Shown here one piece after another: positions 59,373 to 64,000 of a DNA stretch of 64,000 bases. This DNA is from a virus, in the IMG/VR virus record IMGVR_UViG_3300033388_006651, positions 1-64,000 of that record; one strand, written 5' to 3'. A model generated the notes under the pieces. The model was not told the origin of the DNA. It searched no databases and was given only the letters and a program-made list of their open reading frames with translations. Numbering within the stretch: position 1 is the first letter of the stretch; the number at the start of each line of letters is the position of its first letter. A program made the translations under genes and the position numbers.

Positions 59373-60212
59373 ATGGCCCAGAAGATGTGGCTGGTCCCGG
59401 CCCTCGACGGGCTCATAGATTTGAACGACGACTCGGTTGACCTCATTGTCACCGATCCGCCGTACGACACGCTCGAGAAATGGCGCAACATGGGGACGAC
59501 GACCCGGCTCAAGAAGTCGAAGCAGTCGAGCAACGAGTGGTTCCCGACGTTGACTTTTGCCGAGCTCGAGAAGGTCTTCGTCGAGTGTTTCCGGGTCCTC
59601 AAGAAGGGCACGCACATGTACATCCTGTGCGACGAGGAGACGGGTGACGCGCTCAAGCCCATCCTCAAGGCGATTGGGTTTGACATGCGCAAGAGCCTGA
59701 TCTGGCACAAGGTCGGCAAACGTATCGGGGTCGATGTGGACTGCCCTCGCTGTGGCGAGTACGAGATGGACGACCACACACCCGGGACACCCGGCATGGG
59801 TTACCCGTACCGCAGCCAGTGGGAGATGGTGCTGCTCGCCCAGAAGGGCAAGCGCAAGCCTCCCGAGAACCGATCAGTCCGCAACGTGTTGACCGTGCCG
59901 TGGATCAAGCGTAAAGGCGCTTACCCCACCCAGAAGCCTCATGAACTTGCTCAAACTTTCATAACTCAGAGTAGCTCACCAGGAGATTTGGTGTTGGATC
60001 CCTTCGCGGGATCCTGTTCGACTGGTTACGCGGCTTTTTTGGAAGGCCGGGATTTTTTGGGATTCGACATCAGTGAAAAAGCCGTTAAGTTTGCCCGGGA
60101 GTGGCAATCCTCGTGGCTCAAGATTGAGGCTGAAAACATCCCAGAATCCCCTGGGACCCCGTCTATCCTGGATCTGTTTGGAGCGCCCGAAGAATCCGCT
60201 GACGACACATAG
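59373..60212 (+). CDS. Beta-class DNA amino-methyltransferase (DPPY, likely N6-adenine)
   Basis: VDLIVTDPPY, RVLKKG, YPTQKP and VLDPFAGS. Confidence 0.88.
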   Translation: MAQKMWLVPALDGLIDLNDDSVDLIVTDPPYDTLEKWRNMGTTTRLKKSKQSSNEWFPTLTFAELEKVFVECFRVLKKGTHMYILCDEETGDALKPILKAIGFDMRKSLIWHKVGKRIGVDVDCPRCGEYEMDDHTPGTPGMGYPYRSQWEMVLLAQKGKRKPPENRSVRNVLTVPWIKRKGAYPTQKPHELAQTFITQSSSPGDLVLDPFAGSCSTGYAAFLEGRDFLGFDISEKAVKFAREWQSSWLKIEAENIPESPGTPSILDLFGAPEESADDT

Positions 60213-61059
60213 TCGAGTCTTTTTTCATTTCGGATTCCCACACGCGTACCGTAGTGAACCCGCACGCGGTCATGTAGGCGTCCTGTGCTTTGTCCCAGTT
60301 GCGTTGGCGTTGTTGCCGAGCGCTGGGATTCGGGTAGCGAACCGGATTTGCGTGCCAGTAGTCGCCGTCGAATTCAATGACCAGGGTTTGTCCGGGAACC
60401 CAAGCATCTACGGTGAACCGCCCATTCACGGTATGCTGAGGCTTGTATGAGATCCCGAGATCCTTGAGCATCGTGTAGCAGCGACGTTCAAAATTGTTCG
60501 GCTGACGTTTTTGTTGCTCTGCGTTCATCCGGCGCAGCATAGCGATCCGCTCCGGGTCCCGATCACGGCATTGGAGGGAGCAGTATTTCCGGTTGGAGTG
60601 CGTGGCAGCGGAAGGGGAACACCAAAAGGTCTGTTTACAGATTTTGCAGGTGTACGAAATTTTGTTGCGGCTCTGCCATCGGTCGTGACATGTGGTGGAA
60701 CAAAAGCGGGCAGTTTTTCGAGATTGCGGGACGACAAACTTCGAATTGCATTGTCCGCAGTTTTTTGTGATCTGGTCTTTTCGGTTTTTGAGTGCACATG
60801 AGAGTGTGCAAAACCGACTGCTGTTTCCGCGCCCTGCGGGGATTTCATAGGAGGTTCGGCAACCTTCACATGTCCTTTGTTCTGGTGGTCGTTTTGGACG
60901 GGGTTGACGAGGGCGACGTTGGGTTGGGATCCCCAGTTGGCGCCGCCATCGCATAACCGTGGTCCCAGAGACTCCGAAATGTGTTCCTAAGTCCGTATCC
61001 GAATTGCATTCGTACCTTTCACGCAAGAGCGCTTCGGAGGGCCGCGAGGCTTTGTGCAC
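60163..61059 (-). CDS. HTH, Zn-finger repeats and a Vsr/DUF559-like endonuclease (putative homing endonuclease)
   Basis: Three CxxC...(F/Y)CxxxC repeats. C-terminal FTVDAW....LVIEFDGDYWHANP...RVWE. Confidence 0.75.
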   Translation of the reverse strand: MHKASRPSEALLRERYECNSDTDLGTHFGVSGTTVMRWRRQLGIPTQRRPRQPRPKRPPEQRTCEGCRTSYEIPAGRGNSSRFCTLSCALKNRKDQITKNCGQCNSKFVVPQSRKTARFCSTTCHDRWQSRNKISYTCKICKQTFWCSPSAATHSNRKYCSLQCRDRDPERIAMLRRMNAEQQKRQPNNFERRCYTMLKDLGISYKPQHTVNGRFTVDAWVPGQTLVIEFDGDYWHANPVRYPNPSARQQRQRNWDKAQDAYMTACGFTTVRVWESEMKKDSTMCRQRILRALQTDPG

Positions 61060-62435: not shown

Positions 62436-62964
62436 CACCCCGGATACCGTCCTCGACCTGTGCGAAGGCGAGGCGTCTTTCTTGACGGCCCCGGTGAACA
62501 ACCGGTTCGACGCGTACCGGGAGTACGAAGTGCTGTGGAAGTATCCGCACCGCTTTGGGGGCTACCGTCGGGGGCTGTGGGAGAAGCTCAGGGACTACAT
62601 CGACACGGGGGTGCGGTGGGGCAACGTCCACGATCTGTTCCAAGCCATGACTTTCCTTGGAGGCGACTGGGTTCCCTTTGACATGCCTGCTGCCAAAAAG
62701 ACGTGGGGATGGTCTCGTCCGGACGGCACCGATCGTCAGAGCGTGCTGATCGACATGGTCAAAGAGGGATGGCACGGCACCCGCCAGGACTTTCGCCGGA
62801 ACTGGCACGAGGAAGGTCCCTTGCGCCCTCTGATCGAAACACCAGAGGGACGCAAGGAGATCGCACGCATGTTGACGACAGGCGATCACTGTCTTGAGTT
62901 CAAGGATGGCGAGTTCGTTCCCGCCATCCTCCGACACCTGGGTTACCAGAGCTCGCTGAGGTGA
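62419..62964 (+). CDS. Hypothetical protein
   Basis: ATG at 62419 after GAGGA, in frame with ORF 62353..62964. Confidence 0.6.
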   Translation: MLNLNDTPDTVLDLCEGEASFLTAPVNNRFDAYREYEVLWKYPHRFGGYRRGLWEKLRDYIDTGVRWGNVHDLFQAMTFLGGDWVPFDMPAAKKTWGWSRPDGTDRQSVLIDMVKEGWHGTRQDFRRNWHEEGPLRPLIETPEGRKEIARMLTTGDHCLEFKDGEFVPAILRHLGYQSSLR

Positions 62965-63621
62965 CCCCTCATGTAGAGCTTGGCTCGCATTGTCTTGTCC
63001 GTGTTGTGGTCGTGGACGGTGTCGCGTTGGATGGCGATTGTCCGGACCTTGTCCCCTCGAGCTCCACCACCGATCTGCTTGCGCCGCTTGGAGTTCCGCT
63101 CTTTGACGCGCTTGGTGGTGCCGGCAACCAGCAGTCGAGCCCGTAGGACCTCTCGTGCTGTCTGTCGGTTGATGGGCTGGCTCCGGCCGCCGTCGACCCG
63201 AACTTTGATGCCCGAGGGCCTGTGGACCAGGATGACGCAGGTATCGGTTTTGTTCCGATGCTGGCCGCCGGGCCCACTGCCGCGAGTGAAGGACTCATCC
63301 AGATCGCGCTCGTCGAGCTCGACCTCGTGGGCCTTCGGTTCTTGCAGGACCGCGACCGTCACCGTGCTGGTGTGGACGCGACCTCGCTTTTCGTTGGGTG
63401 GTACGCGTTGGAAACGGTGACCGCCTGCTTCGTGGCAGAACGCAATGTCAGCGTTCTTGCCGGAGATGCGCATCAGCAAAAAGCCGGCGCGCTCCTCTAG
63501 CAGTTCGTGGTCAAAGGTGCTCCAAAGAACAGTACCGGGTGTAGATGCGATACTGTTCCTGGACCAGATTTTTGGCGTCTTCGCCGCCTTCTGCGGCACG
63601 AATTTCTACGAGAATGCTCAT
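62943..63621 (-). CDS. Class I peptide chain release factor-like protein (about 225 aa), expressed via a +1 frameshift
   Basis: ORF1 (63621-63511) reads MSILVEIRAAEGGEDAK...LEHL*. The +1 frame reads DHELLEE...EAGGHRFQRVPPNEKRGRVHTSTVTVAVL...GPGGQHRNKT...RSQ..N...DKVRT. Confidence 0.9.
63510..63525 (-). promoter_or_regulatory. prfB-type programmed +1 ribosomal frameshift cassette
   Basis: The minus strand reads TTG GAG CAC CTT TGA C: an internal SD GGAG, a 3-nt spacer and CUU-UGA-C. Confidence 0.85.
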
Positions 63622-64000
63622 GACTACTGTCTCTTTCAGCCCCGAACAGCATCGCTTTGGCAAGCTCTGCAAACGAGGACACGGTTACGAGGATACTGGA
63701 AAAAGTCTTCGGTTCAAATCGAACGGAAGTTGTGTGATGTGTGTCCGGGAATCGAGCGCTCAGTACCACCAGGAGCACAAGGACGAGATCCACGCTCGGG
63801 CAAAAGGGTGGCGTGCTGAGAACAAAGAATTTCTTCGTGAGAAGATGAAAGGGTACGAGAAACAGTACGGGAAGACCAAACGGGGACAGGAGGTCCGCCT
63901 TCGAGCTCGAAGATCACGGAAAGCCGAGGGACGGGATAAGATCACCCGCGATAAATACCGTCGAACCAAAAAAGGCCGTGAGTCTCAGCGCCGGTGTAAT
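63620..64000 (+). CDS. N-terminal part of a probable HNH-type homing endonuclease (3'-truncated)
   Basis: Open from the ATG at 63620 to the window end: MTTVSF...GKLCKRGH...R...GSCVMC followed by a basic helical region. The nuclease domain lies outside the window. Confidence 0.55.
   Translation, partial: MTTVSFSPEQHRFGKLCKRGHGYEDTGKSLRFKSNGSCVMCVRESSAQYHQEHKDEIHARAKGWRAENKEFLREKMKGYEKQYGKTKRGQEVRLRARRSRKAEGRDKITRDKYRRTKKGRESQRRCN

Follow-up and report, generated by a model that had tools for sequence, protein, structure and literature searches.

A phage RF1-type release factor without domain 1, split by a prfB-type frameshift cassette, whose PPN tripeptide is probably a conservative variant

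Can a release factor whose own gene is interrupted by a UGA codon read that UGA? UAA and UAG are the stops read by RF1, UAA and UGA those read by RF2, and the question is raised by a gene in a 64,000-nucleotide stretch of phage DNA (positions 1 to 64,000 of IMG/VR virus record IMGVR_UViG_3300033388_006651; the window below). Direct reading and translation of the minus strand (63621..62943) revealed a class I release factor of 225 amino acids that consists of domains 2 to 4 only and is readable at full length only through a +1 shift at an internal UGA. An original prediction, made from the sequence alone, had noted that asparagine replaces the threonine of the RF1 tripeptide PxT (PPN) and had left three options: PPN confers recognition of UGA or of all stops, giving true autoregulation; the factor is RF1-like and cross-regulated by host RF2; or it is a ribosome-rescue factor. 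We favor, with a probability of roughly 0.6, a phage RF1-type class I release factor without domain 1 that would read UAA and UAG and in which PPN is a conservative substitution.

How is this protein encoded? The gene opens with an ATG (63621-63619, minus strand) and runs in frame 0 for 36 codons, the last of which is CTT (63516-63514), followed by TGA (63513-63511). The +1 frame opens with GAC (63512-63510), comprises 189 codons, and closes at a TAA (62945-62943). The features of the locus are as follows.

63514..63621, minus strand: frame-0 part, ATG plus 35 codons to CTT (Leu36); direct reading, with NCBIfam RF1 and Pfam PCRF alignments unbroken across the junction.
63510..63523, minus strand: +1 frameshift cassette, GGAG (63523-63520), spacer CAC, CTT (63516-63514), TGA (63513-63511), C (63510); direct reading.
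62943..63512, minus strand: +1-frame part, residues 37-225 and TAA, with the remainder of domain 2, GGQ domain 3, and domain 4; translation and profile/structure alignments.
63366..63410, minus strand: decoding loop QRVPPNEKRGRVHTS, residues 71-85, with PPN at 63401-63393 and the Asn76 codon AAC at 63395-63393; direct reading and alignment to Thermus thermophilus RF1.
63261..63269, minus strand: GGQ peptidyl-tRNA hydrolysis motif, residues 118-120; translation, invariant in our family alignment (A1).

The frame-0 part encodes the first strand and helix alpha-5 of release factor domain 2, including the AAEGGEDA tip (residues 9-16; 63597-63574). No domain 1 is readable in the factor's frame because an in-frame TAA lies 22 codons before the ATG; the original prediction had placed this TAA correctly at 63687-63685, although it gave the distance as about 21 codons. 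Upstream of the ATG, the DNA belongs to an HNH endonuclease gene that runs the opposite way. The start that had been predicted for the feature, 63512, is the first base of the +1 frame, and direct reading confirmed the other sequence observations as well (the loop, the GGQ motif, the missing domain 1, and the dependence on a frameshift at UGA).

Do the two halves, once joined, make a release factor? Pfam PCRF matched residues 2-89, spanning the junction, with only the last 94 of its 194 positions (101-194), and Pfam RF-1 matched residues 98-205. The NCBIfam RF1 profile was matched at positions 105-334 of 347. The two RF1 models scored 192 and 184 bits, against 127 for RF2, 71 for PrfH, and 41 for ArfB, all under the curated cut-offs: the RF1 equivalog level (TIGR00019 / NF001859) was not reached (192 bits versus 400 and 184 versus 423), nor was that of the PrfH model (TIGR03072; 167 bits) or of the ArfB model (100 bits). 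The ArfB match covered residues 98-132 only, in a protein with a full decoding domain. Among Protein Data Bank sequences, the top matches were all RF1 (E = 1e-40 to 1e-34); mitochondrial RF1 followed, and RF2 came after it (1e-22); the PrfH structure aligned with the factor in the GGQ domain only, and the C terminus is an ordinary release factor domain 4, not an ArfB-type tail. An AlphaFold model built from 20 family members had a mean predicted local distance difference test score of 85, with values of 91 to 97 over residues 1-70, the junction region. It superimposed on ribosome-bound RF1 with a template modeling score of 0.91 and a root mean square deviation of 2.2 to 2.4 Å and fitted the closed crystal forms of free RF1 poorly. 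The joined halves thus make one continuous RF1 domain 2-4 protein, predicted to resemble RF1 on the ribosome. Together, profiles and reading bear out a minimal RF1-like factor without domain 1 and with GGQ intact.

Is the split in the reading frame genuine? The element order of prfB is present in the factor gene: a Shine-Dalgarno-like (SD-like) run, a 3-nucleotide spacer, CUU, UGA, and C. The Escherichia coli prfB site is AGGGGG-UAU-CUU-UGA-C. About 95 distinct related loci have a stop codon dividing the gene in this way; in 91 the break falls at the codon found here, and the position matrix of these 91 sites reads C-GGAGG-nGT-CTT-T[G/A][A/G]-C, with CTT in 99 to 100% and C after the stop (+4) in 81%. 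The SD-like run is missing at that place in family members that are not shifted. A broken gene or a sequencing error would fit the fact that gene callers give only a 218-amino-acid open reading frame (ORF) with a meaningless N terminus at this locus. However, those 91 loci repeat the whole arrangement (SD-like run, CTT, stop, C) at one and the same codon, and both halves are conserved at the protein level. In contigs of two other studies (X2 and X3), assembled independently, the shift site is letter-for-letter equal (the Asn codon AAC being covered by X3 only), and none of the compared runs showed insertions or deletions. We therefore regard a broken gene or an error as hardly credible, and the comparisons across loci indicate that the frame split is real and selected.

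The place of the cassette is not the same everywhere. CTT-TGA-C occurs at at least three codon positions, depending on the subclade: the stop lies 20 codons past the EIR motif in L016, L017, and L020, 42 to 43 codons past it in L019 and L225, and 32 codons past it in all others. Because the cassette stands at different codon positions in different subclades, these data suggest repeated gain or movement of the gate. In one subclade (L070, L073, L085, L098, L148, L154, L156, L161, L174, L152, L063, and L056), an in-frame TGA stands in place of the shift, and in L045 an in-frame TAG does. The in-frame stop is often embedded as GG[CT]-TGA-CT[CG], and in several members it occupies the place of Gly-Trp in cellular RF1. 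In L225, which lies inside the in-frame-stop clade, the codon concerned is instead the site of a CTT-TGA-C shift. Genome-wide recoding of TGA as sense is unlikely for the records checked: in 20-kb stretches of five phage records with the in-frame TGA, coding cover was 78 to 95% in the standard code and barely higher with TGA open. Since these phage stretches look standard-coded, the in-frame stop seems to be a case of gene-specific read-through.

Which stop codons serve as the gate? Across the family, they are TGA in ∼73%, TAG in ∼24%, and TAA in 2 cases, and on the tree TGA and TAG replaced each other at the gate about 21 to 22 times. In contrast, a 2025 survey found TAG in none of 8,164 prfB genes and saw no programmed frameshift in prfA (PMC12421855). 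The terminal stop of the factor genes themselves is TAA in 68 of 120, TGA in 33, and TAG in 19, though TAA is the rarest stop in the window's phage (23 of 135).

Where does the family belong? The nearest database proteins are ORF calls of 174 to 235 amino acids with 52 to 99% identity. Pattern scans returned 409 relatives in IMG/VR and >597 in metagenomes. In a search of one genome per species (185,579 species), truncated members made up 4 of the best 80 matches, the remainder being full-length prfA; all four lie on contigs of metagenome-assembled genomes, one of them labeled Nannocystis. In GenBank, phage members occur only in uncultured huge-phage records. RF1 and RF2 were placed by a tree, and PrfH and ArfB were compared by their profile scores. 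In the tree, which comprised 155 rows and had its root on RF2, the truncated members (119) formed one side of a branch with a Shimodaira-Hasegawa-like approximate likelihood ratio of 100 (FastTree, 95), and cellular RF1 was not resolved as a single group. Domain 1 is missing throughout the truncated clade. On this tree, the family is shown to be a large phage and metagenome clade apart from cellular RF1. Clustering within an already characterized family, which would have spoken against the original prediction, is seen by half: its clade lies next to or within RF1, yet it is a clade of its own and uncharacterized.

We next consider the reading head. Residues were mapped by alignment to T. thermophilus RF1, with roles as given in PMC3974865.

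G116 of T. thermophilus RF1 is G12 of the factor: reads U1 (main chain).
E119 is D15: reads U1 (main chain).
Q181 is Q71: reads base 3.
R182 is R72: keeps E119 off a G at base 2.
P184 is P74: first residue of the PxT motif.
T186 is N76: bonds U1 and A2.
H193 is H83: stacks on base 2.
T194 is T84: reads base 3.

Only T186 and E119 differ among these decoding residues, being replaced by Asn and Asp. Q71, R72, P74, P75, E77, the GG tip, and GGQ are invariant in alignment A1, and the family signatures are x-EIRAAEGG-[DE]-DA and QR-[VI]-PP-[TN]-EKRGR-V-[HQ]-TS. In the 106 cellular RF1s sampled, the tripeptide is P-[AEVS..]-T in every case and Pro-Pro in none. Residue 83, the His that stacks on the second base, is Gln in ∼45% of the family (36 of 79 in the Thr group and 8 of 23 in the Asn group); Gln also occurs at this position in a few cellular RF1s, from metagenome contigs labeled Treponema, Ruminococcaceae, and Eubacteriales. 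The decoding loop is shortened or rewritten (for example, Q-H-A-P-T-G-K-V-H-T-S) in L013, L056, L099, and L114 and in about one-third of the short 50%-identity representatives, which recalls the two-residue-shorter loops of some organellar RF1s. Five members (L053, which equals L005; L112; L144; L143; and L075) have SPT, with the first residue of RF2 and the third of RF1; four of the five have a TAG gate, too few to test.

Is PPN a new anticodon? Depending on the sample, between about a fifth and a half of the family has Asn where PxT has its threonine.

120 nearest proteins at 90% clustering, plus the query: PPN 56, PPT 56, other 5, no loop match 4.
Short forms among 50%-identity representatives (motif-unbiased search): PPN 13 (plus 1 PKN), PPT 36, SPT 3, PPS 3, and a few more.
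122 distinct loci first classed as truncated (found with a PP[NT]-biased pattern; 2 of them turned out to be full-length RF1 that runs off a contig end): PPN 22, PPT 70, other 30.

The Asn codons AAC and AAT are one transversion away from Thr ACN, and on the tree Asn and Thr were exchanged at least 13 times among 100 to 102 rows, with 5 to 7 independent contrasts on well-supported branches. Two PPT genes form the sister group of the window's own PPN trio, and a further PPN gene branches off outside this group. Among shifted genes with a TGA or TAG gate, the ratio of TGA to TAG was 16:5 in PPN genes and 37:12 in PPT genes (TGA in 76% of each), and in phylogenetically independent pairs there was no association between Asn or Thr and the gate codon. 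Neither did Asn covary with the known decoding residues (Q71, R72, P74, H83, and T84), and the His/Gln split at residue 83 is alike in the PPN and PPT groups. A link of PPN to G+C content was dropped: the raw difference (0.60 for PPN versus 0.53 for PPT; P = 0.0008) vanishes in phylogenetically independent pairs. The choice between TGA and TAG at the gate likewise had no relation to G+C. There is also precedent for PxN. In the account of Duarte et al. (2012), PxN makes up 9 of 10 non-canonical organellar RF1 motifs, and its passages citing Young et al. (2010) report full-length PxN loops as capable of codon-specific release and Caenorhabditis elegans mtRF1a (PVN) as having full UAA/UAG-specific release in vitro and in vivo (PMC3472500). 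Because Asn does not travel with UGA gates, PPN does not appear to be the UGA switch. Judged by these comparisons, PPN is probably a recurrent conservative variant of the RF1 PxT, with no sign of a new stop-codon specificity. The idea that PPN itself brings UGA or all-stop reading, and with it true autoregulation, is not supported, given the recurrent swaps, the missing link to the gate, the missing co-change, and the PxN precedent. What is new here is this negative result on PPN, with the tables that link tripeptide, gate codon, and tree.

How might such a gene and its product work? A ribosome with tRNA-Leu on CUU would pause at the weak UGA-C; the internal SD-like GGAG, three bases upstream, would pair with 16S rRNA, the tRNA would slip from CUU to UUU, and reading would pick up at GAC. 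That ribosomes actually shift at the cassette we infer from the mechanism of prfB. The output of full-length factor would then be inverse to the rate of UGA termination, that is, to host RF2 activity. Since an RF1-type product cannot close a UGA gate directly, the gate in the window's phage probably reports host RF2 activity, and the product is probably unable to read UGA itself. Of the three options originally put forward, an RF1-like factor cross-regulated by host RF2 fits best. The gate may also be a general sensor of slow termination, in which extra RF1, by freeing host RF2 from UAA codons, could close a feedback loop indirectly. The factor itself would read UAA and UAG, with Asn76 taking over the hydrogen bonds of Thr186 to U1 and A2, would release the peptide through GGQ, and would leave without the help of RF3. 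According to a published report, neither release nor codon specificity depends on domain 1, whose only necessary role concerns RF3, a domain-1-less RF1 being functional in vivo and in vitro (PMC1586002).

What would the phage gain? The window's record spans 146.8 kb of what is a larger genome, that of a giant uncultured phage (CheckV completeness, 28%; 59% G+C). ARAGORN found 20 tRNA genes over the whole record, starting 730 bases upstream of the factor, of which the first four are tRNA-Lys genes on the same strand. The two features upstream of the factor are as follows.

63614..64000, continuing to about 64330 of the record, plus strand: HNH endonuclease gene; ORF, Pfam HNH E = 3.7e-10.
64348-65896, minus strand: tRNA-Lys cluster; ARAGORN.

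The HNH gene sits between the tRNA-Lys cluster and the factor, and its ATG and that of the factor, facing in opposite directions, overlap within the palindrome TCATGA. The HNH gene has the look of a mobile insertion, given that in at least one close relative (L002) the tRNA-Lys genes end ∼80 nucleotides before the factor gene. The four closest relatives have tRNA-Lys genes just upstream on the same strand, and other members have tRNAs of many kinds. A tRNA gene on the same strand lies no more than 1 kb upstream of the factor at 27 of 111 loci, and 154 of 157 nearby tRNAs are on the factor's strand. In a heuristic ORF set (not from a gene caller), the stops of the window's phage are TGA 67, TAG 45, and TAA 23, so that half are TAG or TAA. 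We saw no signs of recoding in this phage, which has long standard-code ORFs and no suppressor tRNA. Given the same-strand tRNA neighbors and the stop usage, the factor may be the stop-codon counterpart of the phage's tRNA supplement.

Several points weigh against an RF1-type factor confined to UAA and UAG. In the window, the HNH gene parts the factor from the tRNAs, and co-transcription there is a conjecture. The switching of the gate between TGA and TAG would be easier to understand if both codons meant the same to the factor, and if the factor reads UAA and UAG only, about three-quarters of the family have a UGA gate that their own product cannot close directly. Asn is frequent in the phage family yet found in 0 of the 106 cellular RF1s, so the constraints on the reading head differ; the Asn amide could conceivably act as a hydrogen-bond donor to O6 as well, were the second base a guanine. 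Finally, Asp takes the place of E119 almost throughout the family, and there is an additional Lys-Arg in the loop; both changes may touch second-base discrimination. The exchange of gate codons, the majority of TGA gates in an RF1-like protein, and the absence of Asn from the sampled cellular RF1s speak for a broadened decoding in which UGA is read along with UAA and UAG, through Asn76 or through the family-wide changes (Asp for E119 and the PP-x-EKRGR loop), as do the unusual freedom of the third tripeptide residue (T, N, S, H, or G) and the existence of SPT variants. If this were true, UGA and UAG gates would both be genuine self-sensing autoregulatory switches, and the phage would have a one-protein termination system independent of the host RF1:RF2 balance. 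We consider it unlikely. Asn does not track the gate codon and so is not itself the switch, PxN loops are reported to be UAA/UAG-specific, and the third-base readers Q181 and T194 are kept, so that a factor accepting G as the second base would be in danger of terminating at UGG (Trp). Such release is reported to be toxic for omnipotent RF2 mutants (PMC7530605), and E. coli RF1 discriminates against UGA 650-fold in dissociation constant (PMC3974865).

The remaining two explanations start from the missing domain 1. The factor could serve in ribosome rescue or counter-defense on damaged or tRNA-starved messages, for example, after an anticodon nuclease has attacked tRNA-Lys, a known nuclease target. 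Like PrfH and ArfB, it has no domain 1, it adjoins a cluster of four tRNA-Lys genes, and its expression would rise when A-site decoding is slow. However, few parts of the family are as conserved in A1 as the stop-codon reading head, and the switch-loop region is strongly conserved too; the PrfH and ArfB scores are far below their cut-offs; the C terminus has no ArfB-type tail; no RtcB was found in the 147-kb record fragment; the neighboring tRNAs of other members are not for Lys only; and the PrfH tripeptide is SxY (PMC1586002), whereas that of the factor is PPN. A rescue role, the third option of the original prediction, has little support from these data, and we regard it as quite improbable. 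Alternatively, a factor that RF3 cannot recycle might occupy stop codons and so slow or bias host termination. The absence of domain 1 from the whole clade and a gate that keeps expression low, as expected for a dose-sensitive protein, are in line with such a modulator, but GGQ and the entire hydrolysis domain are invariant, and the reported activity of a domain-1-less RF1 argues against it; we hold it to be very unlikely. On balance, the RF1-type reading of UAA and UAG remains our preferred explanation.

How does the factor compare with known systems? It shares with bacterial RF1 (prfA) domains 2, 3, and 4, the loop length, the pattern Q-R-x-P-x-[T]-E-x-x-G-R-x-H-T-S, the GG tip of alpha-5, GGQ, and the switch-loop region. 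Unlike prfA, it lacks domain 1 (∼105 residues), is phage-borne, and needs a frameshift; it also has N for T186, D for E119, a middle Pro, and EKRGR where RF1 has E-[ST]-Q-G-R. Its cassette is that of prfB, but here the gate interrupts domain 2 in a gene of RF1 type (codon 36/37), whereas prfB has it in RF2 domain 1 (codon 25/26). With the organellar PxN RF1s (C. elegans mtRF1a PVN, Plasmodium falciparum pRF1 PKN, and Cryptococcus mtRF1a PAN), it shares Asn for the PxT threonine. Those proteins are full-length and nuclear-encoded, mostly with a loop two residues shorter, whereas the phage loop has its full length and a middle Pro, and even closely related members can differ in having Asn or Thr. 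PrfH (RFH) of the RtcB2-PrfH pair is likewise a class I release factor homologue that has lost domain 1 and keeps the decoding domain and GGQ. Unlike the factor, which has an RF1-type head and no RtcB neighbor, its gene follows rtcB (PMC1586002). Phage-encoded release factors of class I (RF1 as well as RF2) have been reported in huge or recoded phages (PMC7162821; bioRxiv 10.1101/2021.08.26.457843); the passages on phage RF1 and RF2 in these papers make no mention of the truncation, the frameshift gate, or the tripeptide, and we found related matches in the LR7452xx and LR7565xx huge-phage records. Our literature search found no described programmed frameshift in a phage or RF1-type release factor, nor a description of the family.

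Elsewhere in the window, an N6/N4 DNA methylase gene (59373-61059, plus strand; Pfam E = 2.5e-32) converges on a minus-strand gene whose product has a C-terminal DUF559 / REase_MTES_1575 endonuclease-like domain after Cys-rich repeats.

What do these findings mean? PPN alone is ordinary, in that replacement of the RF1 threonine by Asn has precedent and, in this family, Asn toggles with Thr without detectable consequence. What is unusual is an RF1-type factor without domain 1 that is widespread in large phages, often within tRNA arrays, and the gating of its gene, by UGA, UAG, or rarely UAA, with a frameshift device so far known only from RF2. The family is a natural experiment on what a prfB-type gate senses and on how much of a release factor termination needs, and its Asn/Thr, His/Gln, and SPT variants are ready-made pairs for the rules of stop-codon reading.

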